Assembly (NCBI GenBank): GCA_044892525.1 | Contig: CM097885.1 | Span: 28,026,001-28,090,000 of the forward strand | Direction of reading: 5' to 3' | DNA length: 64,000 nt | Source of the DNA: Schmidtea polychroa | Taxonomy: Eukaryota | In this document: positions 4,821-64,000 of the stretch, one piece after another | Layout: each line of letters starts with the position of its first letter | How positions within the stretch are numbered: position 1 is the first letter of the stretch | Position numbers and translations under genes: made by a program | The notes under the pieces: model-generated | Database searches by the model: none | The model's input: the letters and a program-made list of their open reading frames with translations, nothing else | Told to the model about the DNA's origin: nothing

Positions 4821-5111
4821 TTATGTAGTACTCATATTCAAAGATTTAATGTCTACAACTTTTTTACCACACATAGAGCAAATTCCTTTCTTAAAAGCAC
4901 AACCATTGCAATAATATGCACCTTCTAAATGGACGCTGCATTTACATAGCTTACAAGTTCTTCCATATGGTGTATTTCTTGATCTTGATTTTGATGTTAG
5001 CAATTTATTTTCATTTAATTTTGATACAACACTTTGTCTTTCAATTTCAGTTCGTTTAGCATTTGGAGTAACAACCTTTTTCAATTTAGATTGGCATTTA
5101 TCGCATACCAT
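4821..5111 (-). CDS. CRIPT: Cysteine-rich PDZ-binding protein
   Basis: MVCDKC...KLNENKLL...CKLCK...YCNGCAFKKGICSMCGKK matches the CRIPT signature over the full 96 aa; intronless. Confidence 0.95.
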   Translation of the reverse strand: MVCDKCQSKLKKVVTPNAKRTEIERQSVVSKLNENKLLTSKSRSRNTPYGRTCKLCKCSVHLEGAYYCNGCAFKKGICSMCGKKVVDIKSLNMSTT

Positions 5112-5947
5112 GTTATAATAATTTAATATTTTAAATATGTTTTAAATAATGATATTAATATTTAAACAATCTAATTAACTATAATTATTATTTCATAATG
5201 AAATTAAATATTTTCCTTATTAAAAATAAAAAAAATAATTTCATATGTTAGAAGTCCTTAGTGTTTTTTTAATATATTTTTACTACTTATTTTATTTTTA
5301 ATTATGTAAATATTATTATTTAAATCTTAGTTAAAGTTGATTTAAATCTTAATCATCATTTTCATTATCAAAATGATTAAATGTAGGATAAATTTCAGTT
5401 TCTAAATCACAGTATTTTTCCTTGAAAAATTATAGTAAATATCAAAATAATTTAAATATTAATAACTAATAATTCATTCCTTTTAAAAGTGATTCTGGCA
5501 ACAAAATTGAAAATAAATAGCAGTATTGATAATATATAATTAAACCTCAAAATGTTGGAACTTATTTTAGACAAAATTGTTAATTATTTGAAGTGGTGGG
5601 CTGAATCGTGTGAATAATGAACAAAGAGAGTTGAATAAAAAATGAATTAAAATGATTAAATGTAAATTTAGAATAATTATAAATAATAGGCCAAGATGAA
5701 GCTACACAATATAAAAATCGTATAAAGTTATTTAAATTTAATAAAAAATACCAATTAAAAACAAACTAAACATGACAAAAAGTTAAATAAATAGTGAAAC
5801 ATAGATAATAAATTGATCCGCGCAAAAAGTTGCACAAAAACATTTTTTAAAACAGAAAAAACAAAAATATCGGCCAAAAATGACACAAATTAGCAAAAAT
5901 TACCAGATTATTTAGGGGTAAGATTGAAATATAAGGCGAATGCTCAA

Positions 5948-6991: not shown

Positions 6992-7303
6992 GCAGTAGAA
7001 AAAGAGTTCAAAGAGTTAGATGCCGCTGTGCCTTTGACATACACGTAGTTACCAAAAGTGACAGTTCATTAGGCAAATGTGAAGATTACCGATTTTTAAA
7101 TTCCATCACTATCCACGACTGTTACAACGCCATTTAATACCAACATCATCAGTCAGAGTCAAAACCGACTGTAAAATTAATAACCCAAAAAATAAGGAAA
7201 AGTATTCAGTAAATAAAATATCAGGAAATAATTATTACATAATCAGTCAGAAAATTTGATATTTAAGCGTAAGTTCATCAGAAGATTTATAAAACAATTT
7301 CTA

Positions 7304-8053
7304 ATGGTCAGATATTCAGGTACTTCATTTCTAAGAACGAATTCAATTCTGAAATTCGATCTGAAACCCATCGAAATCTCGGATGAAATAATTGAGGATT
7401 TATTCGTTAGATTTCTATCCGATGTCAAGTCTTGTAAAACCAGCATGTCAGCGATTTTCTGGAGATTAGAGAAGATGTATTGGTATTATGTCGATTCAAA
7501 CAAATTGAAAGAAAAACAATCATCGCAACATTTTAAGAGATTTGTCATTGGCATTCGATACTATTTACAGGAAATTCTCCCACTCAACATTGACATTGTC
7601 AATGAATATAACAAATGGAATTATAATCGCAGATTTATACCTCGAGCTAAAGCAATTATTGTTGACGAAAATATGGAAAACGTTTTGCTTACGAAATGTC
7701 ACTATAATGACTATTATATTTTCCCCGGTGGGAAAGTAGAAGAAACCGATACGCATTTATTGGACACAGTAATCCGAGAAATCTACGAAGAAGTTGGAAT
7801 AGACCTTTCTAATGTTGTAGATGAAGATTTATATTTTGATCATGTTCAATACAGTTTACTCAGTAGATACTATGTGATTCGCAATTTCAGAAAAGACACA
7901 TTTTTACAGCCATTAGTGGACAATGAGATTCAAGTGATAAAATGGTTCCCAATAAAGGATATTCCCGATAATATGGAGCAATATAACATTTCATTAGAAA
8001 ATATCAAACTTGTTGTTAATCCTCTGAAATATATGTCAAAATATTTGAATTAA
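7304..8053 (+). CDS. Dcp2-like mRNA decapping Nudix hydrolase (short, intronless)
   Basis: Box A-like IIEDLFVRFL...IFWRLEKMYWYYVD, Nudix box FPGGKVEETDTHLLDTVIREIYEEVGID and NEIQVIKWF; first ATG at 7304 gives 249 aa. Confidence 0.85.
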   Translation: MVRYSGTSFLRTNSILKFDLKPIEISDEIIEDLFVRFLSDVKSCKTSMSAIFWRLEKMYWYYVDSNKLKEKQSSQHFKRFVIGIRYYLQEILPLNIDIVNEYNKWNYNRRFIPRAKAIIVDENMENVLLTKCHYNDYYIFPGGKVEETDTHLLDTVIREIYEEVGIDLSNVVDEDLYFDHVQYSLLSRYYVIRNFRKDTFLQPLVDNEIQVIKWFPIKDIPDNMEQYNISLENIKLVVNPLKYMSKYLN

Positions 8054-18235: not shown

Positions 18236-19216
18236 TTAAATTGTTGATGTATTCGTAGAATTTTCTTTATCTTCTATTTTTTGAGAAAACTTTATCATTA
18301 TAAACTTAGGCATCCAAACTTGTAGATATTTATTTCTAAAACTTTTCATTAGAACAATATAAACATACGGATTAATGACACTGTTTAACGCAGTAAGAAC
18401 TACTCCTGCAATACCTAGTGGTGAGCTAATTACGTACGAAGTCACTCCTAAAAATCCAAGAATGTAATATAGTGTATCATAAGCGAAACTTAAAATAAAA
18501 AACACTGTAATTACAAATGTTGATAAAGTAAACATTTTTGTTGCCTTTTGATAGCTATCAGCCTTTTTTATGGATTTTCCAACCATCATTTTTCTCAGAA
18601 AGAAATACACTCGACTATATAAATAGATGAAGAAACACGTTGGAATGACATATCCAACCATTGACCAAAGTATTGCGTACCCTTTCCAAAAGTTCTTCAT
18701 TATATCTCCATCGAATTGTGGTATTTGAATGCATGAACCATTCGGTAAAAGTCTAGATTGAAGTGTAGATGGAATTATTATTATCGAGGGAGCCAAGAAT
18801 AACACAAGGTAAGTTGTAATAATTTTCAATCGAATATTTTTTTTATAAGTTTGAGCAGTAACAACCGCCCAATATCGGTCAAAAGCCGTAAAAACTAAAT
18901 TTATGATACTCATGTGAACACTGAACCAATATATCGTCTGACTGTAAAATACTCTGCATCCAATCCAATCTATGAAATAAACTCCTGTGACATTTGGAGG
19001 TACCAAGGTTAGGAGAAATGAGATCAAGCACACATTGAAATCGATCAGTGATTGATTTCTCAACAAAAGAGTTGTGTATCTCGATTCAACGGATTTCAAA
19101 AATACCGTTACCGTAAAAGTCAAATTTCCCACCATCCCAATTACCACCAAAACAGCGAGAAAGACGTTAAAGTTTTTCAATTCAAGAACCGATAAAGGAT
19201 CATTGCTTCCTCCCAT
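18236..19216 (-). CDS. Rhodopsin-family (class A) GPCR, intronless
   Basis: Seven hydrophobic segments with TM1 GN, TM2 LID, AFDRYWAV and NSVINPYVY; first ATG at 19216. Confidence 0.9.
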   Translation of the reverse strand: MGGSNDPLSVLELKNFNVFLAVLVVIGMVGNLTFTVTVFLKSVESRYTTLLLRNQSLIDFNVCLISFLLTLVPPNVTGVYFIDWIGCRVFYSQTIYWFSVHMSIINLVFTAFDRYWAVVTAQTYKKNIRLKIITTYLVLFLAPSIIIIPSTLQSRLLPNGSCIQIPQFDGDIMKNFWKGYAILWSMVGYVIPTCFFIYLYSRVYFFLRKMMVGKSIKKADSYQKATKMFTLSTFVITVFFILSFAYDTLYYILGFLGVTSYVISSPLGIAGVVLTALNSVINPYVYIVLMKSFRNKYLQVWMPKFIMIKFSQKIEDKENSTNTSTI

Positions 19217-20429
19217 TATCAAAATGTAAATAAAATCGAAAAACTTAATATTTATAACAAATTTTCGATTAGAATTCCAATTTTACCCAATGAAATTACA
19301 TTTAGAAATTTAGCGAATCAAAAAATGCCAATACTTGATTTTTATTTGTTGTATTTTTTTTTATTTAAAAAATGAAATTATTGTATCCTGTAGCAAGATC
19401 CTGTTGAGTATTAATTCATCTTTTCATTTCTCATAAACTTAAAGTTTATCAAATGTTTTGTCTTCTACATTTTGACTTTAGATTAGAATTTTTCAAACGA
19501 TTTTTGATCATCATTCACAAGGTTGTAATGTTTTGTTTGTATGATTCAAGTGAACATGTCCAAGTTATTAAAGGTAGATATTTAAGTTATCAAAGTTGAT
19601 AGTAAAAATATGAGGTGAAAAAAATATAAAAGTTTTTTTACATAATCAGTGGCGGTACTGCAAAATTTGGACTCCCCGCAAAAGAAACAATTTCTCCCAA
19701 ATATATGTATTATATTTAACAAAGAAAAGTTAAATTTTAGATATTTATGAGAACTTAAACTCAAAAGTAAATTTATGAACTTGAATACGCAAGAAATTTT
19801 AACTTTTAGCTAATTAGGTCTAATTCATAACCGAACACACAACGTATTCAAAATTAACTAAATAATATCAATATAACCCTTGAATTCATATCAAAGATGC
19901 AAACTACGCACTAGTACAAAAATTAATACTTGAAGAATATATTTGTAAGCTAACAATAGATGCGTGAAAAGAATTTCAGTCCCTTATAGTTGGTGCTCCC
20001 CTCATCATGTAGGATCCCGTGTCCACTACTTCTGCCAATGTACATGATATAATAACAAGATTTAAGATTGATTTATTGATGAAAAAAATGTCTGAATGTG
20101 CCACATGCTTAAAACTTATTGTTGAAAAATTTCTTTCAATTTCAATAAGTGTTGAATTTTTGTTAAAAATATAAGAAAATTAAACAATGGTTTGGTCTTT
20201 CTGTTTCAAACTTGAAATGAGAACTGATATTTCATTTAGTTGAATTTTGAACACTGATAAGACAGAAATATAAAACGAACAAAGAGATTGATGTTGATGC
20301 AGTTAATAATTGGATGTTGAGGTCGTACGATGTTCCCCAAATTGTTAGGTTTCCAGATTTTTGAAAACATTTTTAATTTTCTTGTGATCAGTTGAAAAAA
20401 GGTGCTTAAATAATGTTTACATCCATCAA

Positions 20430-20555: not shown

Positions 20556-20701
20556 ATCTGTAAAAAAACTATCAGTAATTTAAATAATTAAAAAAACTTA
20601 ATAAAATAAAATAAAATTAAATGTGCATATTTCAGGCACTACAGTCATTATATAATTAAAATAAAATAAGGATATTTTTTTCAGTTGATCGCATTGCTAG
20701 A

Positions 20702-21047
20702 AGAAGAAACCGATACGCATTTATTGGACACAGTAATCCGAGAAATCTACGAAGAAGTTGGAATAGACCTTTCTAATGTTGTAGATGAAGATTTATATTT
20801 TGATCATGTTCAATACAGTTTACTCAGTAGATACTATGTGATTCGCAATTTCAGAAAAGACACATTTTTACAGCCATTAGTGGACAATGAGATTCAAGTG
20901 ATAAAATGGTTCCCAATAAAGGATATTCCCGATAATATGGAGCAATATAACATTTCATTAGAAAATATCAAACTTGTTGTTAATCCTCTGAAATATATGT
21001 CAAAATACTTGAATTAAATATTTCTATATGGAATTTATGCCAACCAA
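20702..21047 (+). pseudogene. Near-identical partial duplicate of the Dcp2-like gene 3' half
   Basis: Matches 7738-8083 (offset 12964); only one synonymous change was noticed; lacks Box A and the start of the Nudix box. Confidence 0.9.
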
Positions 21048-24608: not shown

Positions 24609-25350
24609 CCCTTAGTAGCCTGATTTACGAAAGTGATTTTTTTAATATTATTGTGTTTGCTTGAGGGTCTAAATGAAGGGAAAAATAGCTAAAAAAATCA
24701 CAATATTTATTTTACATATTTATTTAGAAAAAAAACAGGTATCAATTTTGATACTTCAGGCTTTAAGGCCATAAAGAAATCAGAAATACCTATGCATGAA
24801 ATAATGCTAAACATTGATTGTTTTTATTATCGCATAACGACACTTTACACTTTTTACAGAACCAGGAGGTAAGTTTCCTACAGTTATTAAATTTACACTT
24901 ATTTCTAGAATCCATAAAATTTTTTCATGACCAATACAATCGCAACGCACGTCAGTAGAGGGTAATACTTGTACACCTGTCCGGGGTCTTTTAGAAGGTA
25001 CTGTAGTGTCTTGTCGACTGTTGGTACTGGGTCTTCCCCTTTTATTTTTTGAGTGACTTTGATATCTACATAAAGTATCGGCAAGCTCAGTTCTAAAATC
25101 TGCTAACTTCATAATGTTCTTCTGAAGTTTTCCTTTCACTGTGTTTACCTTTTTGTATAGTACCCAAGCATTGATGACAGTCATGTTTAACAAATGGTAG
25201 AAGAGCCTCGTTGTCCACTTTCTCGACTTTATGCGGATGTGATATCGACCAATGAAGCTATCCATCAAATCAACACCGCCCATGTGTGTATTATATTCTT
25301 TTATGACCCGAGGACATCATACTTGAACATTGGCCTTTAATTTCTTTTCT
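24609..25350 (-). mobile_element. piggyBac 3' remnant
   Basis: TTAA|CCCTT terminus at 24605-24613; CPRVIKEYNTHMGGVDLMD...KWTTRLFYHLL...INAWVLY...FRTELA. Confidence 0.85.
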
Positions 25351-25466: not shown

Positions 25467-25960
25467 TTATGATCGTCTTCCTATTATTCCACCTAATAAT
25501 GATATTGCTAAAGGTATCAATGTACCGATAAATCCCCCTTGTTGTTTATTATAATTTTTCTCATTTGTTGACGAATTTTATTATTTACTAATGATGGCAA
25601 AGGTTTCCTATGTTTACTCAATAATTGATTTTTGGATTTACTGATTTTTATCTTGCCTTTGACTACTTTAAGTATAATATCGAGTAAATCATCGACAACA
25701 TAATTTGGAAATGATTGCAAAACACTGTTTCTTTTCATACTTGGTGCCTTTAACAATGTATTAAAAAACGGGAAACTCCGATGATTTTTAACAACTTTTA
25801 CTTTCTTAGTGGTTTTACTTTTAGGTTTAGGTTTAGGATTTTTCGAAATAAGATTCATTGCAGGAAACCTTTCTGTAATAAGTTCTTTAGATGGAGCATA
25901 ACTAGTTGTTGGTGGAACTTTTGATTGTTTTTTATTTGATATCCTTGTTTTTGAAAACAT
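25467..25960 (-). pseudogene. Basic pX/core-like virion protein with GG|F motif (frameshifted)
   Basis: Lys-rich ORF 25517-25960; one frameshift near 25550 continues it as NKQQGGFIGTLIPLAISLLGGIIGRRS*, an adenain-type cleavage motif plus hydrophobic helix. Confidence 0.6.
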
Positions 25961-26013
25961 GTTTTATATGTTTTCAACTTTATTTTGAACTTTTTTTATA
26001 AACCGTGGCACCT

Positions 26014-26613
26014 TTATGGGTTGAAAATATCTGTTTTTACTCGTAAGTCATGAGGACATTGTTGTGTGAAATCAAGAAATATATACCCATGCGGTATTTT
26101 CGTAGCATTTTGAAATGCATTGATAAGAAAATTACGATTATTAGGGTATGCTTGTCGTCCAAGACAATCAATGACAGTTGCATCTCTAGGAATCTTGAAA
26201 ATAACTAAATATTGTACATTTAAATTACGTGTTCGATGTGCACTACCTTGATGAAATAGATTTTGTGTTATGAAAATAACTGTTACACCAACATCTCTGC
26301 TGATTTTTGTGAATAAATTATTAAAATCTTTTTCTTTATTGGCTTCTTGATACAAATCATCGATAATGATGACATCATCTTTCTTCAAACGACTTGACCA
26401 GTTTTTATCAAATCCCTTTACTATTTTCATGTTTTTCAACTGACAGAAACTTGATTGCGTCAATCCATATTCTTCGTCGGCGCCCCTATGCCAATAAATA
26501 TTGTTGAATTTTGTTTTGAACAAATTTGATTTTAGTAATTTACAAACAAATAATGTTTTTCCGCTACCCCTTGGACCAACGATTTGGTATACTGCATCAT
26601 TTCGTAATTCCAT
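26014..26613 (-). CDS. A32/FtsK-like DNA packaging ATPase of Polinton type
   Basis: Walker A GPRGSGKT, Walker B IIIDDL, then LFTKISR, IFITQNLF, RTRNLNVQY, FKIPRD and GYIFLD. Confidence 0.9.
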   Translation of the reverse strand: MELRNDAVYQIVGPRGSGKTLFVCKLLKSNLFKTKFNNIYWHRGADEEYGLTQSSFCQLKNMKIVKGFDKNWSSRLKKDDVIIIDDLYQEANKEKDFNNLFTKISRDVGVTVIFITQNLFHQGSAHRTRNLNVQYLVIFKIPRDATVIDCLGRQAYPNNRNFLINAFQNATKIPHGYIFLDFTQQCPHDLRVKTDIFNP

Positions 26614-26677
26614 TTTTTAAATTTAAACTATATAATTATTGTTTATATTGATAATTTAAATGAAATCCGTTTTAAAA

Positions 26678-26811
<134 letters not shown>

Positions 26812-26823
26812 TGTTTCATTAAA

Positions 26824-27288
26824 ATGCTTTCAACTATAAATTACAGGGCAAAAGCTGATGTATCAAAAATGGTATTTCTAATGGGGTAACCACAAAAACC
26901 TATCAATAGAAGTAAAAAATATCCAATAATATATTTCAAAACTGGTAAATGTAGAATTATGGGGTGTAAGGAAATAATCAAAGCTAGTGAATATAATGTT
27001 TATGATTTAGAAATACAATCGATAACCGTAACTTCCGATATGGGATTTACTTGTTACTTAAATAAATTGGCTAAATTAATACCATGCTTTAACCAACCAG
27101 AATTATGTCCAGCTTTGAGATATATAAAATATAACCCTGTGTGTGTAAATATATTCGCTAGCGGTAAAATAGTAAATCTTGGACTAAAAAATATTGATTA
27201 CGAATGTATAGTTGATAATATCATATCTGAAATTAAATCAATAATTGAAGGAAAAGAATTTTTAGATTTTTTATTATCACTTAATTAA
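26824..27288 (+). pseudogene. Compact TATA-binding-protein-like gene of the element (one in-frame stop)
   Basis: ATG 26824 in frame with ORF 26959; TAA at 26887-26889; TBP repeat motifs IYFKTGKCRIMGCK and QPELCPALRY...VNIFASGKIVNLG. Confidence 0.8.
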
Positions 27289-53974: not shown

Positions 53975-54539
53975 CTTTAAAGCGTGATTTAAAAAATATC
54001 AGGAGTAGAAAAGATTTGAGAAAATTAAATCGAAAGAAAAAGTTGTATGCGAAATTATGATATTTCATAGTGAATTGATGGAAGTTTCGATTATATACAA
54101 TATGATTTAGTTATTTGTTATATAGAAACTCACTATTTCAATTTATCACATTGCTTGGAGGTGTCTCTGTTATTTATTGAACCAAGGGGAGCTGTATACT
54201 AAAAATCAATTTTGTCAAATTTACACCCAACAAAAAATAAGAAAAACAATAAAATTATTACAATGGTATACACGTTTTTTTGTCGTTGATCTTGCATTCG
54301 TTTTACTTGATTGGGTCTATTTTCTAAGAAAATTATGTCGAACCGTAAAATGTGAAAATTTGTGAAATCGGTTAATTTTTATATTAATAAATCTTCAATA
54401 TATGTCAACAAGTAATTTTTGATACTTTTTTGTCAAGTATCAGAGTAGTGAATAGTAAGGACTCCAACTCACTTTCAAGGTCATGGAATATCAAGATCAA
54501 ATATAGACCAATCGAATCATTTATTTTTTAAATTAACAT

Positions 54540-54900
54540 TTTATTTAATTACTTCTTTTTAATTTTATTAATTAATTATTTTATGATGTTATATTTTAAT
54601 TACTTACTTTAGTTAATTTTTAATTTATTACATTTAATTAATTTATTAGTTTATTAATATTTTATTTTAATTACTTACGCTTTTTAATTATTATTATTAT
54701 TATTATTATTTTTAATTTTATTTAATTACTTCTATTTTTTTTTCTCTTTAATTTTATTAGTTAATTATTTTATGATGTTATACTTTAATTACTTATTTTA
54801 GTTAATTTTTAATTTATTACATTTAATTAATTAATTTGTTTATTAATACTTTATTTTAATTGCCAACGTTATTTAATTATTATTTATTTATTTTTTAATT
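54540..54900. repeat. AT-rich tandem duplication (two units of about 180 bp) downstream of pPolB
   Basis: TTTTATGATGTTATA...TAGTTAATTTTTAATTTATTACATTTAATTAATT occurs twice. Confidence 0.7.
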
Positions 54901-55215
54901 TTACATTATATTCTAACAAGAGCGTAAATTATAACAATAATATTTCAATTTGAATAAAATTTTAATTAGTAATTATTCAATTTGAATAAAATTTTAATTG
55001 GTAATTATCATAAAATAAAGCTGTGTTAATTTAAATAAAATGGGCATTAATTTTTCAAAACAAAGCAAAGTTTTTCATGATAAATAATAATTCTTACTTA
55101 AAACTAATTATCTAAATTAATTGGACAAATGAATTATTAAATGATAAAACATATTTTAATTAACGAAGTCAAATAATTCACAATATATATTTTATTATTC
55201 ACATAAATTTAATTG

Positions 55216-58108
55216 TTAAAGTTCTTGTTTCGATTTGCATTCATTTGTAGACGGAGCAGTTGCGATATGCATTTGACGAATCTTATAGTGACCGTAGGCA
55301 TAGCTTTCATTAGAATTGAACCAATACCTTTTTTCATCCAAACATTGGAGAGCTCGTTTTTCAGTAATGAAAGTATACAACTGATGATTAACACTTCCTA
55401 TTCTCTTTTGTTGGATGCTCACTGTTCCACCATCAGTATACACTTTTTTATAGGCTTCATGGGTGATATTAGAATTTGTAAGACTTATTCCTTTGGCTTT
55501 TAGAGTGTTTTTATCTCCTTGGAGTGAGTAGCACTTGGGTCGAAGAAACACCCATTCTTTATATTGATTTCCTTTATTCTCATCCTTGAATTTCCCGATT
55601 ACCGAACAAATTTTATCTGAGAACAATGGATCAGTCACCGGATAATTTGAAGTATCTAGGAGCCCATCGGCAATCATTTTTGGATACAGTTGTAAGCGTA
55701 AATCAACATTTTTACACTCTAAAAAGAAGGAATCTGTGTCACCGGCTACGATATTAATTTGACAATTGAATTCTTCTCTATAACTCTGTAGTTCTTTATA
55801 TTGAAACTGGTACATGCGAAGTTTAGATAAATCAAGTACGGTTTGTCCAATATACATTGGTCTATCTAAACACACCATTTCCTTATCAAGTATAACAGCA
55901 ATGAGATCATCCGCAATCTTGATGCTACGACGAAACATAGGATTACTACAATAAGTTATCAATCTTTTGCTTTTGCTGCATAATCTCAAATTTATACGTT
56001 TCTTAAGGTTTTCCACGGTTTTACCATATAAACTGTTGTTCTTTAACTTATAATAATCTCGCTGAAATGAATCTGTACTAGCTGCTCTCATTTGAGTATT
56101 GTAATCAATATAGCGTTTGAAAATAGCTACTTGCTTGAATTCTACAGCACGATTAACTTTTGTGACTTTTGCGCCGTAACTCAACCACTCTGTCAAAACT
56201 CTACCATTAACTACATAGTTTTTCTTAGGCTCATGAGTTAACAACAGCTTTTCAACTTTACTACCAGGTGGATAACAAAGCTCAGGAGCTATAGGTAAAT
56301 CATCTAGCTTATCTTGTATACTATCAGGAATGACGATGTCAACCTCTAGAACATATCCACGATCTCCATCAAACTCATCCCCATTTGCACATCTTTCAAC
56401 AATACCATTCATTTCAGTATGATCATTTATCCATCTAAATTCACCAATAGGAAGTTTTTGCGACAGCGCCCATCCATATAAATTATTAACATCTAGGTAT
56501 GACATTTGTGTTGATTCATCAGCTTCAACATGATGTTTGTTGATAAATGTCATTCCACCACGAATACCAGCTTCAAATAAACGGTAAAGCTCTGGATCTT
56601 GAATAAGTTCTACCGGTTCAGGTAACTGTTTAATAGCTGATGCCCAACTTAATCCGGGTATGGAAACAAACGATAAAGCCTCAAGTCCATCTTCGTCAAA
56701 TGTTTTTTCTCTGAAAGCTTCAAAAACATCGGCCAACACAAAAACATCCAACTTGAGATATACTAGCATGTAATCTAGCAGTGTCTCACAGTTATATTGT
56801 CGCCAGATTTGATTTGCATGTATATAATCTTCTTGACTAACTCCCTCCCAAATCGATGGTAATTCTGTTATTGACTGTAAAACATCCATTGACGTAGCAA
56901 TATCATAAGGAAATATGCCTTTACCAGTTATTAGATGCGAATTGAAAATCTTTGAAGTAAGTGGAAGACGTGGCAAGTTTTTTGATAAATTTGCCAAGCT
57001 GCTATTTAAAAATTGTAAAGAATCAATGAATCTAATTCTTCTGCCTTTCGATGTCGCTGTAAGTGTGAGAAACTTTTCTGTTGATTGAGGAATAACAATT
57101 AAATTCCAATCTGGGAATTTTCCAATTGCATATTTTAATATATGATGAATGTCATATCCACGAAGATTATGAAATACAACAGGTAAAGACGGATTGATTC
57201 TTCTAGCCAAATTACAATCTTGACACGCTGCTCCGAGATATTGACCAGTAAAATGATCATGATCTCGAACGGGTATATTGATAATCTTTTTACAAAGGTA
57301 GCAATGAGTTTGAGTCGTGAATTCTTCCTGCTCTTCCCAAGTGAGTTCCATCATTTCCTTTGATCCATTAATTTTATACCACGGATAAACTATGTCTGTA
57401 GCTATATCATCCAATGCTTGTATGAACTGAATGATACAGTTTTTCCCAACAAATGTTTCATTTCGGATCGGACAACCTTGATGGAGAAGCACAAATTCAG
57501 ATGCAATCGGCTCATGTTTTTGGAAGTGTTTGTCATCTAGAGGTAATATCGATTCAAAGTCCGCGTAGACAACAAACTGCTGTTTTATAGTTTTACTCCA
57601 ATCTTTAAATTCGATATATTTATTCTCTGGCATTGAGTATAGAGTCGTACGCTCCACATTCTTCCTACAAAGACCTATATGTCTTTCAAAAGCAGGACGT
57701 TTTTGAAACCCATGAAGACACGTATGACACCAATGTGATTGGATTCTGACTCCTTCTACTCTATCTCTGTAATTCAGCAGTCGATCGAGATTAGTTACAG
57801 CCAAAAAATGATAATTTAATTCTAAATTTAGTTAATATTTTTAATGATTAAAGGAAATATTACCTTCTTCAATCAATAGGAGATATATCTGAGATCCCGT
57901 CGAAGTACTTCTATATACCAAGTCAATGAACGGATTCTTGAAAATATCATTAGTTTTTTGTTTAATTGGATCTTTATTATATTTGAGAACATTGATCGCT
58001 AGATTTGGATTAATTGCTTCAAATTGGCAAATGTTAACCAACTTCATCGGAAACCATTCAAATTTCCATTTTAAGTCTTAAAAACAAAATTCAATGATTT
58101 ATGACATT

Positions 58109-58193
<85 letters not shown>

Positions 58194-59265
58194 CCACTTA
58201 AGTTATATTTTGTTGTTCTTTCTCTATTCCGACGTATATCATCATAACGTAACACAGCTAGTATGCTATATAAAAAACAGAATTGATCATTGTTTTGAAC
58301 ATTAACTAAAGCCTGACAGTTTTTCAGGTAATTTGGCGTTTTAATGTAACTTGAACCTAAGTAATCTCTTGATTTATATATATATAATAATGTAAATAAT
58401 CTTACCAGATACATGTATTATGTCTGATAATTTAGTTAAAATCATAGTAACTTCTAATATTTTATGAATTCTCCACCCACTACTTTGTTGAGTGTATTTC
58501 TCCAACTTTTCTTTTAATTTTTCAATTCCATCATTAATAAATGAAGATGACATTGTAATTGCTTTATTCGACAAACACCATTTTTTAATTTCACCATCCT
58601 CTTTGATAAACTCTGCACAAAGTCCAAATTGGATTTTTACTGTCCCCATTCGTTGAATATGATCTTCTATTTCTTTGATGAGACAATCTGGAACAACAAT
58701 GTCAGGAGAATTAATTGCAGATACATCGCTTGTCAATTCAACACGAGAACCGTTTAAGTCAGACTCCCGACGTGGACACAATTGTATGTTAGAGTCTCCA
58801 TTTCCGTAAAATATTGACTTTCGTTTTGTGGTGCCAGAGTTTTGTCTAACTATATTTATAATTAATATTAAACAACTTAAATAACATAACTTGTAACATA
58901 TTCTTTAATCTCCTTAGGATCGTATGATGTATTCATTTTCGATTGTACTATAAAAAATTAATAATTGTTAATAGTAGAAAGAGTATTACTTTTAGTGATC
59001 ATCCTGCTCTTCGTTTCTTCGAATCTTCTAAGATGGTGTCCGTGTTGTCGTACAAACATTAACCACCTACCTGGTGTTATAATGAGACATTCCGGACATA
59101 TGTAACCCGATAAGGTAGAGTCATTTATCTTGAAATATGATGATGTAACTGATTTACAGTTCTCCACATCTTCATGACTTTCGGCAATACAAAATTTATA
59201 TAAACTGCATCCGTTCACTAAAAAATAATCATTAATATTAGATAGAGAATAAAAATTTATTCACT
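55216..59265 (-). CDS. Protein-primed DNA polymerase B (Polinton/Maverick type) with endonuclease VII-like insert; about 1236 aa after splicing
   Basis: YADFES, FHNLRGYD, KGIFPY, YLKLDV, YLDVNNLYG, KLKNNSLYGKT, GDTDS, GKFKDE, KAKGI; CxxC..DHDH..G..CxxCN; N-terminal SSGW and GSSY..NNDQFCF motifs. Predicted introns 59218-59264, 58948-58989, 58850-58890, 58357-58405, 58077-58194, 57822-57863. Confidence 0.92.
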
Positions 59266-60426
59266 TATATAAGTTAAATTAAAAGTTTAAATGACAAACA
59301 TTTGAAAAGTTACTGCTTATATATTACACATGATTAAATTCTGACCAATCAAAATCAAGGAAGGGGTAGGAAAAATAAATATATTCTGACCAATCAAAAT
59401 CAAGGAAGGGGTAGGAAAAATAAATGCATTACATTGCAGTATTTTAAAACTTAAATTTTAAAACACATTTTGACGCTAAAGTTGACTTATTTAACATTTT
59501 CATAATAATTTAATAAAAATAATGTGTTGAACTCACAAAGTAATATCATTTTTTTTCATCAAATTGCAAAACAGTAATAACGTTTTCATAAAATTGTAAC
59601 AAAGTAATAACATATTTCAGATAAATTTTCAACAGTTGTAAAATATTTATCAAATTGTAACTAAAATAATAAAAATATTGCAACAAAGTAATAAAATAAT
59701 GATGTTAATTGGGACAAATCAATACATTATTTCGAAGACGGACAACAAATTAAAAAAGAATATTGTAATAAATTGTGAAGTCTTTCAGTAAATTACAACA
59801 AAGTAATAACATATTTCGGAAATATTTCACCAGATGTAAAATATTTAAGCAAATTGTTATAAGATTATAAAAATATTGCAACAAAGTAATAAAATAATAC
59901 AACATTTTAAACTCTAGATCAATCCATTTTATAGAAAATTAAATTTTATCTCTATAATATATGAATAAATATACAAGGAAATTACGTTAACGTATAATAA
60001 AACATGTGTGTATTACACACAAAACAAGATACATAATTTCTAATCAATCCATTTTATAGAAAATTAAATTTTATCTATATATTATATGAATAAAATCCTA
60101 AGAAAATTACGTTAACCGCGCGAAAAATACAAATTTATCGTAAAAACATGTGTGTATTACACACAACATACGAGACATAATTTTTAATCAAGCTATTTTA
60201 TAGAAAATTAAATTTTATCTATATATTAAATGAATAAAAATCCAAGAAAATTACGTTAACCGCGCGAAAAAATACAAATTTATTGTAAAAACATGTGTGC
60301 ATTACACACAAAGCACCAAACTGAAATTGTAATTGCGCCGTGTTGTAGAGAATTAAATTCTGCCTATACATGGTTACACTTAAATCTCGATCAGACCTGT
60401 GAAAAGAGACATAAAAGATAAAAAAC
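58397..60426. repeat. Left arm of a large inverted duplication (extent limited by window end)
   Basis: Reverse complement of 61972-64000; mirrored coordinates sum to 122397/122398. Confidence 0.95.
59317..59425 (-). promoter_or_regulatory. Pol II-type promoter of pPolB
   Basis: TATATAA at 59317-59323 (minus); CCAAT at 59345 and 59390 inside a 45-bp tandem duplication; mirrored at about 62972-63080. Confidence 0.6.
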
Positions 60427-60720
60427 AGTAGAGTAGTATGATGTGGGCCCGCCCGGCCAGGAGCCCGCTCGGCCACATATACCCCCTCCCCCCGTGTGTA
60501 AAATAATGTTAATAATAATATTTATATATCAGTAGATAGATCTCGCACTGGGCCTTAAAATGAGCTATAGATCAATAAAATCTGTTGGTGGGAACATTAA
60601 GTTTTGAGCAAACGAAAACCAGGAGCCCGCCAGACCACTTAATAATATTTTTTGAAAATAATAATGATTTATGAGTCATCGTATGAGTCATCGAATGAGT
60701 CATCGTTCTAAAAATACATG

Positions 60721-60777
<57 letters not shown>

Positions 60778-60981
60778 TTCTTGGGAGTTGTAATAATAAT
60801 TCTTTGAAAATATCTTAGTCATTATTAATAATACTAATAATACCCTAGCGAGTTGTTGATTGTGAGTAGTACCCTTGTGTGCAGTACCCATGTGACTTGT
60901 TGAGTGTGAGCAGTACCTTTGTGAGCAATACCCATAGGGGGACAGAATATCTTGTCGGATAAACTCGGAGTATATAATAAT

Positions 60982-61041
<60 letters not shown>

Positions 61042-61971
61042 CAACGATTTAAACAAATTAAATTAATATGTAATCGATAATTAAAACAAAGATTATTAGT
61101 TCTAAAATTATTAGGCATCATTCTAAAAATATGACGTAATCATTCTAAAAATATGTGGCATCGTTCTAAAAATATGTGGCATCGTTCTAAAAATATGAGT
61201 CATCGTTCTAAAAATATTAGGCATCGTTCTAAAAATATGATGTAATCATTCTAAAAATATTAGGCATCATTCTAAAAATAATAGACATCGTTCTAAAATT
61301 ATGATGTAATCGTTCTAAAAATAATAGACATCGTTCTAAAAATATTTGGCATCATTCTAAAATATTAGAAAACATTCTAAAAATGTGATGAGTCATTGTC
61401 TTTGTTCTAAAAATGTGATGAGTCATCGTATGATAAAAATCTATATCTCATTAGAAAGTTCTTGCACAGAGCTTTAAAATAAGCTATCGATCAATATAAT
61501 ATGTTGGCGGGAACAATAATTTTTGGGATGAAAAAAAGTAGGTCCCCGCTGGATCACTTAATAATATTTTGAAAAATAATAATAATTTAACGTTGAAAAG
61601 ATGGTGGTCATCAATTGTTAATAACATTAAAACTATTAAAGATATATATGATACCTATAGCTCATTCGAAAGGTCTTGGACTGAGCTTTAAGATGAGGTA
61701 TCGGTTAATAAAATTTGTTGGCGGGAACATTACTTTTGGGAAGAAAAAAAGTAGGTCCCCGCTGGATCACTTAATTTAAAAAAAATTACGTAATAGTTCT
61801 AAAAATATTAGGCATCGTTCTAAAAATATTAGGCATTGATTACGTAATAGTTCTAAAAATATTAGGCATCGTTCTAAAAAAAAATAAAATTTTTTCCCGG
61901 GGGGGGGGGGAGGGGGTATATGTGATCTGGAGGGGACATGGCCGGGGGAGCCCACATCCTACTACTCTACT
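60427..61971. mobile_element. 1545-bp non-coding cassette with Polinton-type AGTAG termini at the palindrome centre
   Basis: Begins AGTAGAGTAGTA, ends TACTACTCTACT; ~65-bp imperfect GC-rich TIRs; shares a 36-bp block (35/36) with 29590-29625. Confidence 0.75.
61096..61420. repeat. About 15 tandem copies of a ~21-bp unit CATC(G/A)TTCTAAAAATATnnnn
   Basis: Seen directly; further copies at about 60701 and 61796-61880. Confidence 0.9.
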
Positions 61972-64000
61972 GTTTTTTATCTTTTATGTTTCTTTTCACA
62001 GGTCTGATCGAGATTTAAGTGTAACCATGTATAGGCAGAATTTAATTCTCTACAACACGGCGCAATTACAATTTCAGTTTGGTGCTTTGTGTGTAATGCA
62101 CACATGTTTTTACAATAAATTTGTATTTTTTCGCGCGGTTACGTAATTTTCTTGGATTTTTATTCATTTAATATATAGATAAAATTTAATTTTCTATAAA
62201 ATAGCTTGATTAAAAATTATGTCTCGTATGTTGTGTGTAATACACACATGTTTTTACGATAAATTTGTATTTTTCGCGCGGTTAACGTAATTTTCTTAGG
62301 ATTTTATTCATATAATATATAGATAAAATTTAATTTTCTATAAAATGGATTGATTAGAAATTATGTATCTTGTTTTGTGTGTAATACACACATGTTTTAT
62401 TATACGTTAACGTAATTTCCTTGTATATTTATTCATATATTATAGAGATAAAATTTAATTTTCTATAAAATGGATTGATCTAGAGTTTAAAATGTTGTAT
62501 TATTTTATTACTTTGTTGCAATATTTTTATAATCTTATAACAATTTGCTTAAATATTTTACATCTGGTGAAATATTTCCGAAATATGTTATTACTTTGTT
62601 GTAATTTACTGAAAGACTTCACAATTTATTACAATATTCTTTTTTAATTTGTTGTCCGTCTTCGAAATAATGTATTGATTTGTCCCAATTAACATCATTA
62701 TTTTATTACTTTGTTGCAATATTTTTATTATTTTAGTTACAATTTGATAAATATTTTACAACTGTTGAAAATTTATCTGAAATATGTTATTACTTTGTTA
62801 CAATTTTATGAAAACGTTATTACTGTTTTGCAATTTGATGAAAAAAAATGATATTACTTTGTGAGTTCAACACATTATTTTTATTAAATTATTATGAAAA
62901 TGTTAAATAAGTCAACTTTAGCGTCAAAATGTGTTTTAAAATTTAAGTTTTAAAATACTGCAATGTAATGCATTTATTTTTCCTACCCCTTCCTTGATTT
63001 TGATTGGTCAGAATATATTTATTTTTCCTACCCCTTCCTTGATTTTGATTGGTCAGAATTTAATCATGTGTAATATATAAGCAGTAACTTTTCAAATGTT
63101 TGTCATTTAAACTTTTAATTTAACTTATATAAGTGAATAAATTTTTATTCTCTATCTAATATTAATGATTATTTTTTAGTGAACGGATGCAGTTTATATA
63201 AATTTTGTATTGCCGAAAGTCATGAAGATGTGGAGAACTGTAAATCAGTTACATCATCATATTTCAAGATAAATGACTCTACCTTATCGGGTTACATATG
63301 TCCGGAATGTCTCATTATAACACCAGGTAGGTGGTTAATGTTTGTACGACAACACGGACACCATCTTAGAAGATTCGAAGAAACGAAGAGCAGGATGATC
63401 ACTAAAAGTAATACTCTTTCTACTATTAACAATTATTAATTTTTTATAGTACAATCGAAAATGAATACATCATACGATCCTAAGGAGATTAAAGAATATG
63501 TTACAAGTTATGTTATTTAAGTTGTTTAATATTAATTATAAATATAGTTAGACAAAACTCTGGCACCACAAAACGAAAGTCAATATTTTACGGAAATGGA
63601 GACTCTAACATACAATTGTGTCCACGTCGGGAGTCTGACTTAAACGGTTCTCGTGTTGAATTGACAAGCGATGTATCTGCAATTAATTCTCCTGACATTG
63701 TTGTTCCAGATTGTCTCATCAAAGAAATAGAAGATCATATTCAACGAATGGGGACAGTAAAAATCCAATTTGGACTTTGTGCAGAGTTTATCAAAGAGGA
63801 TGGTGAAATTAAAAAATGGTGTTTGTCGAATAAAGCAATTACAATGTCATCTTCATTTATTAATGATGGAATTGAAAAATTAAAAGAAAAGTTGGAGAAA
63901 TACACTCAACAAAGTAGTGGGTGGAGAATTCATAAAATATTAGAAGTTACTATGATTTTAACTAAATTATCAGACATAATACATGTATCTGGTAAGATTA
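61972..64000. repeat. Right arm of the large inverted duplication (runs off the window)
   Basis: Mirror of 58397-60426; ORFs 58958-59218 and 63179-63439 encode identical peptides. Confidence 0.95.
63132..64000 (+). CDS. Second copy of the pPolB gene, 5' exons (truncated by window end)
   Basis: Predicted introns 63133-63179, 63408-63449 and 63507-63547 join MNGCSLYKFC...ITK-IQSK...YVT-IRQNSG...DIIHVSG. Confidence 0.85.

Follow-up and report, generated by a model that had tools for sequence, protein, structure and literature searches.

Polinton polymerases are usually described as single open reading frames (ORFs), as a preliminary description of the locus studied here also stated, in agreement with PMC8097293. 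The gene considered in this work, a Polinton-type gene for a DNA polymerase of family B that is protein-primed (pPolB), lies on the minus strand of a 64,000-nucleotide stretch of the Schmidtea polychroa genome (assembly GCA_044892525.1, contig CM097885.1, positions 28,026,001 to 28,090,000; hereafter the window), and its frame is broken near the 5' end by six short AT-rich inserts. This raises the question of whether the inserts are introns on which expression of the polymerase depends, how old they are, and whether their removal serves as a switch between a terminal protein (TP) and the complete polymerase, as the preliminary description had proposed.

A polymerase frame divided by six phase-1 inserts

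Frame arithmetic showed that removal of six GT-AG inserts produces a coding frame of 3711 nt, or 1236 amino acids, with no internal stop codon. All six inserts interrupt the frame in phase 1, begin with GT, end with AG and have a GC content of 6-17%, in a source genome of 781 Mb that is itself AT-rich. Insert 1 splits the start codon, and joining at junction 1 restores the ATG. The internal exons (228, 57, 444, 162 and 213 nt) are symmetric, and the last exon, of 2606 nt, is uninterrupted; it matches PF03175 (E 4.3e-32), in keeping with a family B polymerase that is protein-primed. All six inserts fall within the first 1105 coding bases, an arrangement with a probability of about 0.0007 if positions were uniform. 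The preliminary description had given this same layout, with the interruptions confined to the N-terminal region, and the DNA bears it out. The features of the gene are as follows.

59316..59394, minus strand: promoter-like elements of putative function, with a TATA-like box at 59316-59323 and CCAAT boxes at 59345-59349 and 59390-59394
59265..59293, minus strand: exon 1, a short untranslated leader whose last base is the A of the ATG; its 5' end is placed from the TATA-like box rather than mapped
59218..59264, minus strand: intron 1, 47 nt, splitting the start codon; 47-51 nt in the 47 arm rows compared below and 47-52 nt over all arms
58990..59217, minus strand: exon 2, 228 nt, predicted folded N-terminal Cys/His domain
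58948..58989, minus strand: intron 2, 42 nt, holding an in-frame stop; 42-46 nt in other arms
58891..58947, minus strand: exon 3, 57 nt, linker; the weakest-supported exon
58850..58890, minus strand: intron 3, 41 nt, of invariant length over all arm rows
58406..58849, minus strand: exon 4, 444 nt, end of the linker and the entire predicted PRD1-type terminal-protein domain with its invariant Ser
58357..58405, minus strand: intron 4, in phase 1 and 49 nt long, on the predicted border between terminal protein and vOTU; 47-66 nt across arms
58195..58356, minus strand: exon 5, 162 nt, predicted start of the vOTU domain including its Cys
58077..58194, minus strand: intron 5, 118 nt and containing a tract of (AT)n; its length in other arms is 39-143 nt, or 15 nt at four places
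57864..58076, minus strand: exon 6, 213 nt, within the predicted vOTU domain
57822..57863, minus strand: intron 6, 42 nt, phase 1; 42-43 nt across arms
55216..57821, minus strand: exon 7, of 2606 nt, with the predicted vOTU His, a Zn finger like that of endonuclease VII, and exonuclease and polymerase motifs

The proposal that the element depends on host splicing is well supported by this arrangement. In the unspliced 5' frame the first Met appears only at residue 68 of that frame, and retention of intron 2, 3, 4, 5 or 6 would lead to a stop after 10, 4, 10, 34 or 7 residues, respectively. A transcript retaining intron 4 would encode about 253 residues, ending just past the predicted TP. Among the exons, only exon 2 opens with TG, so exon 1 is unable to form an ATG with any other exon.

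Evidence that the inserts are probably introns

The preliminary description held that homologous proteins with residues matching the inserts would speak against introns. At junctions 4, 5 and 6 the homologues skip the inserts: 26, 35 and 36 of 36 long homologues, respectively, bridged the junction with alignment on both sides, at net length differences of 0-1, 0-5 and 0-5 residues, where coding inserts would have added 16, 39 and 14 codons. The inserts at these three junctions are thus absent from homologous proteins. The case for introns 1-3 comes from pairwise N-terminal matches, base composition and the conservation of their ends. Three uninterrupted homologues (P0011, P0002 and P0026) begin with Met-Asn at the point where the split ATG lies, and 60 of 61 anchor matches retain the A that precedes donor 1, the exception being an internal duplicate in L055. 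Exon 3 is weak, with identity to P0011 at 3 of 18 positions and one synonymous against five non-synonymous changes.

The gene occupies the arm of a palindromic element described below, and other arms allowed copies to be compared. The GT and AG ends of all six inserts were kept in 47 of 47 arm rows, a table that spans two subfamilies and in which L055 was entered twice. The lengths of introns 1, 2, 4, 5 and 6 varied among these rows by amounts that are not multiples of three. Exon indels were few (10 distinct), and some of them were frameshifts in decayed copies. Likewise, of the 12 indels listed for run X6, beside which there were four more, nine were intronic, three upstream and none exonic. 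Stable GT and AG ends around a drifting interior are what spliceosomal introns of the U2 type would be expected to show. Thus, the six AT-rich inserts are likely ordinary spliceosomal introns. As judged from these sequence comparisons, splicing is strongly indicated for introns 4-6, moderately for intron 1 and least for the joints around exon 3.

Over window positions 57500-59500, contig depth in the public run X6 summed to roughly 500,000 at least, and many variants were present; the figure is not a copy number.

Predicted domains of the N-terminal region

We refer to the polymerases of the window type as family A; sister families B and C occur in the same genome. The structure model used here was that of the natural N-terminal 500 residues of a family-B protein, not of family A itself, with a mean predicted local distance difference test score of 80.4. 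The model contains a folded N-terminal domain followed by a disordered linker (73-127), and then, at 144-256, a domain of a sheet plus two helices, in which the invariant Ser240 lies between the last helix and the last strand. The next domain carries Cys291 and His395, both invariant. In alignment A1 the Cys, His and Ser are all invariant, and the vOTU Cys/His positions are intact. The best viral fold match of the model was an adintovirus PolB (E 1.5e-23). The modelled layout fits the TP and vOTU domains described in bioRxiv 10.1101/2024.03.18.585575, from which the domain names are carried over as predictions.

Placing the exons of the window on the family-B model gave residues 6-71 for exon 2, 143-264 for exon 4, 267-319 for exon 5, 329-390 for exon 6 and the part from 393 for exon 7. 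This puts intron 4 on the predicted TP/vOTU border and introns 5 and 6 within the predicted protease domain, away from domain borders.

Age and spread of the introns

Two metagenome contigs, L099 and L100, encode polymerases whose catalytic part is 56-57% identical to family A, and both carry GT-AG inserts of 43-45 nt in phase 1, placed exactly where junctions 4 and 6 lie. The intron 6 donor, GTAATAT, is identical in family A and L099/L100. A third phase-1 insert is found near junction 3 in L100, whose gene is preceded by similar CCAAT and TATA boxes; another sequence, L104, starts inside an acceptor-like stretch at junction 6. Intron 5 is missing in L099 and L100 and in the nearest uninterrupted relatives. 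The preliminary description had suggested that related copies be examined for conserved intron position and phase; in such comparisons the intron ends were kept in every arm row, and position and phase matched at junctions 4 and 6 in L099 and L100.

Proteins resembling exon 4 pointed in the same direction. Of 59 representatives, 47 reached junction 4 and 12 did not. Among those 47, 26 read through, 11 were short or unclear, three continued briefly in homology and seven broke, losing homology at the junction-4 Gly and stopping within 6-26 residues rich in AT codons (FYMINK 0.58 versus 0.30). The script had scored 10 breaks, from which P0170, P0191 and P0194 were removed by eye since their homology continues. 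The seven truncated representatives (P0152, P0157, P0158, P0167, P0168, P0169 and P0179), known as proteins only, are 36-52% identical to each other. The contigs of P0152 and P0004 have one and the same length, 13,555 nt, so these two proteins may represent separate exons of a single gene. Intron 4 thus appears to be present in seven further protein clusters. Because introns 4 and 6 are common to relatives of about 55% identity, the six introns are probably not all recent gains; they are apparently of mixed age, and introns 4 and 6 would predate family A.

At four places (L106:9038-9427, L107 and L108; G000:C4:73.59 Mb and C3:110.12 Mb) intron 5 has shrunk to a 15-nt, in-frame and stop-free remnant with GT and AG ends. 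The remnant probably arose when a segment between short repeats was deleted from the 39-nt version, which likewise keeps the frame and lacks a stop. We had considered L106-L108 as precise losses of intron 5, an interpretation that we rejected because the remnant persists. The 3' halves of intron 5 are unrelated between the two subfamilies. No full-length protein of more than 90% identity was present among the 120 hits listed, and no relatives were found in viral contigs. No longer protein containing exon 4 turned up when such proteins were sought, a negative that carries little weight.

Probable sources of the phase-1 bias

Other Polinton genes of this genome also have phase-1 introns. Family B has three phase-1 leader introns, with 12 of the 16 arms that have the acceptor fitting fully, two frameshifted and two unmatched. 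The phase-1 acceptor at its last junction, three codons from intron 1 of family A, occurs in other lineages as well. The integrase gene of a full Polinton (L090:1418-2545) has a short phase-1 GT-AG insert within its Thr-Asp-Leu-Gly-Lys-Glu-Phe stretch. Among sites ending in G, 45-51% were in phase 1 in the four coding sequences compared. The bias probably stems in part from the G at exon ends, which in AT-rich genes falls mostly at codon position 1, and probably also from the birth of a micro-exon inside a phase-1 intron, which is necessarily symmetric. An inherited phase-1 leader junction may have contributed. Codon composition accounts for part of the bias; these factors lessen it without explaining it in full.

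The gene lies in a polymerase-only palindrome

The preliminary description had overlooked that the gene forms part of one arm of a 13,458-bp palindrome, which extends from 54444 to G000:C1:28093901 and has AGTAGT ends.

54438..54443, plus strand: target-site duplication TATCAG, 6 bp, repeated past the right end at G000:C1:28093901
54444..60431, no strand assigned: left arm, with terminus AGTAGT at 54444
60432..61967, no strand assigned: central spacer, with tandem repeats, bordered by two ends that face inward and resemble those of this genome's full integrase/ATPase Polinton
61968..64000, continuing to G000:C1:28093901, plus strand: right arm, with the mirror gene copy from 63132

The arms differ by two substitutions and two indels across about 5.9 kb, and in the right arm exon 7 of the gene copy contains a premature stop. 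Within the central spacer, 870 bp match L095 at 93%. The terminal inverted repeats, the AG ends (AGTAG) and the 6-bp target duplication are those of a Polinton. Genes for integrase, packaging ATPase, capsid and protease are absent from the element, which therefore does not count as an autonomous Polinton, and its polymerase ORF holds the six inserts, unlike the intronless core ORFs described for vertebrate elements.

The family is numerous. This end occurs in the genome in 70 exact copies, most of them in pairs 12-16 kb apart; the family-B end has 287 copies, a 32-mer from the center 589 and the border between exon 1 and intron 1 595. Matching 6-bp duplications flanked all pairs of the same family that we compared (A/A 11 of 11, B/B 8 of 8). 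A sample of 40 stretches, taken from the first 100 listed of the 589 and of the 287 matches, contained no integrase or capsid-sized ORF inside the palindromes; the ORFs of at least 140 amino acids inside the elements were pPolB or repeat-derived only. Integrase was found in a separate full Polinton (L090 and L097), and the ATPase belongs to another family; the full Polinton of this genome has integrase, ATPase, a TBP-like protein and its own pPolB. The polymerase-only palindrome is probably integrated in trans by the full Polinton. We also considered a segmented Polinton, in which other arms would carry integrase or capsid genes. This idea found no support, as every sampled arm held a family A or B pPolB.

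Rearranged palindromes were observed as well. Two hybrid elements (L031 with L012, and L032 with L014) have one family-A and one family-B arm around a shared center. L065, L064, L025 and L078 are internally deleted or re-folded palindromes, of which L065 (6.9 kb) has lost its center and kept its 6-bp duplication. Palindromes also lie beside or within other Polinton remains, namely a pPolB piece and an ATPase (L041:387-1627 and L043:238-858). The full Polinton likewise occurs in large palindromes (L079-L086), its TBP/ATPase/integrase end being folded back within the gene after integrase. In a rearranged full Polinton at L097:1116-5813, another ORF runs in frame into pPolB, giving an open frame of 1566 codons. 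The window holds a full-Polinton fragment at 25517-27288, in which an A32-like ATPase ORF (26014-26616) stands head-to-head with a TBP-like ORF (26890-27288; PF00352), and which adjoins a PF13843 transposase piece at 24807-25316. The genome contains at least 150 close matches to this ATPase.

Proposed mechanism and alternative explanations

We consider it probable that the locus is a Polinton-type protein-primed polymerase gene whose six introns are removed constitutively, whose TP is freed by its own vOTU domain and whose palindrome is integrated via the full Polinton. Transcription would run outward from the CCAAT/TATA region in both arms, and the host spliceosome would remove the six short introns constitutively. 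The product would be one polyprotein of 1236 residues, comprising a Cys/His domain, a linker, TP, the vOTU protease, exonuclease and polymerase. Because the vOTU Cys/His pair is intact, TP could be released by proteolysis, the route put forward in bioRxiv 10.1101/2024.03.18.585575, and the protease of the same protein, not splicing, would provide the release route. The element's own polymerase would copy the palindrome by protein priming, with fold-back copying, and insertion in trans would fall to the integrase encoded by the genome's full Polinton.

Several observations count against parts of this explanation. None of the six spliced joints was seen in the contigs of eight runs (X1-X6, X10 and X11), none of which is recorded as RNA. 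Contigs guessed to be RNA, although possibly DNA, ran unspliced over intron 3 (X1 record 7 and X4 record 31, the latter also over intron 2), and X2 record 14, from a run that is possibly DNA, continued unspliced over the intron-3 acceptor. At junctions 1-3, none of the 36 long homologues passed the two-sided homology test. The structure prediction of the N terminus, which the preliminary description had called for, agreed with the TP/vOTU topology in the family-B model, but a Foldseek search of the PDB returned no match at E <= 0.001, the best rows being Y-family polymerases at E 6e-3. OTU structures were absent among the Foldseek hits listed, and searching the PDB by sequence yielded no hit below E 0.14; the vOTU label stays a prediction. 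For six of six introns to be in phase 1 has a probability of 0.011 under the composition null (p=0.47), or 0.023 if introns 2 and 3 are counted as one event, and no phase-0 or phase-2 intron was seen among the few Polinton genes examined, so that selection for symmetric exons may still be at work. Of the two A/B hybrid pairs, one had a matching duplication and the other did not. Finally, quick trees placed uninterrupted proteins between family A and L099/L100.

The missing spliced joints and the unspliced contigs over introns 2 and 3 would be expected if the 5' region were a decayed gene in which AT-rich insertions mimic introns and are never spliced. We regard this as very improbable, given intron ends conserved in every arm row across two subfamilies, intact exons in a young and numerous family, and the same inserts in distant relatives. 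The trees bear on another explanation, in which family A gained all six introns recently and independently after settling in the host nucleus, the outside matches being parallel gains at favored G|G-type sites. The trees do not join family A with L099/L100; close relatives on long DNA contigs (P0003 on one of 18,985 nt, P0149 and P0009 on contigs of 27,495 nt) read through junctions 4-6; and families B and C are without introns 4-6. However, such parallel gain would have had to reproduce two exact matches of position and phase in both L099 and L100, the shared intron 6 donor and the intron in seven further clusters at junction 4, and the trees in its favor are quick searches with many open forks. 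Recent gain of all six introns thus seems quite unlikely. With uninterrupted proteins placed between family A and L099/L100, a single old gain requires several precise losses or recombination; on the sequences compared, we nevertheless prefer an old gain followed by repeated loss or recombination to its rival, parallel gain.

The remaining alternative develops the switch of the preliminary description: intron 4 would be regulated, its retention giving a free protein of about 253 residues with the Cys/His and TP domains and its splicing giving the polymerase, and the phase-1 layout would be kept for exon-skipped isoforms. The position of intron 4 directly after the predicted TP domain, and its presence in distant relatives, are the one respect in which that proposal gained ground. 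Intron 4 is also the most widely shared of the introns, its retention would terminate translation after 10 residues, and the phase bias exceeds the composition null. In addition, adenovirids and a coral polinton divide the gene at the TP/vOTU border (bioRxiv 10.1101/2024.03.18.585575). However, nothing in our data points to regulation. The intact Cys/His pair means that TP release needs no splicing, introns 5 and 6 fall within the predicted protease, and exon 1 can complete an ATG with exon 2 only. More than half of the relatives that reach junction 4 (26 of 47) read straight across it, and in L099 the read-through into intron 4 is far longer than in family A. Moreover, a stop codon upstream of later splice junctions is likely to trigger nonsense-mediated decay, and the stop in a retained intron 4 would precede two further junctions. 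We therefore consider a regulated intron 4 unlikely, and favor constitutive splicing with proteolytic release of TP.

Comparison with known systems

The element shares pPolB with PF03175, terminal inverted repeats, AG ends and the 6-bp duplication with animal Polintons/Mavericks (adintoviruses, of the Alpha type with OTU and PF03175 PolB; PMC8502044, PMC8097293). In contrast to these, its polymerase gene has six GT-AG introns, and the element is a two-gene palindrome without integrase, ATPase, capsid or protease genes. Intact vertebrate Mavericks were described as intronless, and were filtered for intronless ORFs (PMC8097293). The pPolB proteins with TP (D1) and vOTU (D2) domains in bioRxiv 10.1101/2024.03.18.585575 have the same predicted domain order, a D1 Ser between the last helix and the last strand, a conserved Cys/His pair and a similarly weak fold match to the Y-family little-finger region, for which the best E in our model was 6e-3. 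The main text of that report contains no mention of introns or splicing, whereas the window gene has an intron at the D1/D2 border.

Adenoviruses, likewise small nuclear DNA viruses, express the replication proteins of E2B (pTP and Pol), and also IVa2, from spliced RNA (PMC11304566). A split start codon has a precedent there, since that of IVa2 in turkey hemorrhagic enteritis virus is formed across a splice junction (PMC11304566). In adenoviruses pTP and Pol have exons of their own, to which common 5' exons are spliced, whereas TP and Pol form one frame in the window gene. As exon 1 yields an ATG with exon 2 only, alternative splicing of the E2B type is not available to it. Spliceosomal introns are also known from other virus-like or integrase-type DNA elements, as introners in dinoflagellate Maverick-Polinton-like proviruses (PMC11957031) and in intron-bearing Ginger1 transposases (PMC2836005). 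Those cases are protist introner insertions or cut-and-paste transposases, whereas here the host is an animal and two introns are conserved in position across distant polymerases; the six introns look unrelated to each other when compared by eye. We found no paper on spliceosomal introns in an animal Polinton pPolB or on polymerase-only palindromes, with subscription papers, Repbase and bioRxiv supplements outside the reach of the search. What is new here is the occurrence of introns 4 and 6 at identical codons in metagenome relatives of about 55% identity, together with the break at junction 4 in seven of 47 further relatives.

Other features of the window

Elsewhere in the window, a Dcp2/NUDIX ORF lies at 7232-8053, a 300-nt piece of which is duplicated identically 13 kb away at 20699-20998. 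Host-type genes include a CRIPT-like ORF (4821-5141) and a single-exon rhodopsin-family receptor (18236-19282).

Implications

Because Mavericks have been filtered for intronless ORFs, a polymerase gene with spliced introns would count as decayed and escape notice. Where polymerases of about 55% identity have introns in common, long nuclear, host-spliced expression is implied, and such introns can serve as markers of how a virus-like element gains and loses introns. With an intron at the predicted TP/vOTU border, it becomes testable whether Polintons release their primer protein through proteolysis, splicing or both. The polymerase-only palindrome preserves a natural record of the copying of such elements. 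A broader reading, that a widespread clade of animal Polintons has an old phase-1 TP/vOTU intron retained to make a free primer protein, is doubtful at present. If it were true, some database Polintons with a "split TP" would be unrecognized spliced genes, and if retention of intron 4 does yield a free TP, the gene would be a living intermediate towards the separate TP and Pol genes of adenoviruses.

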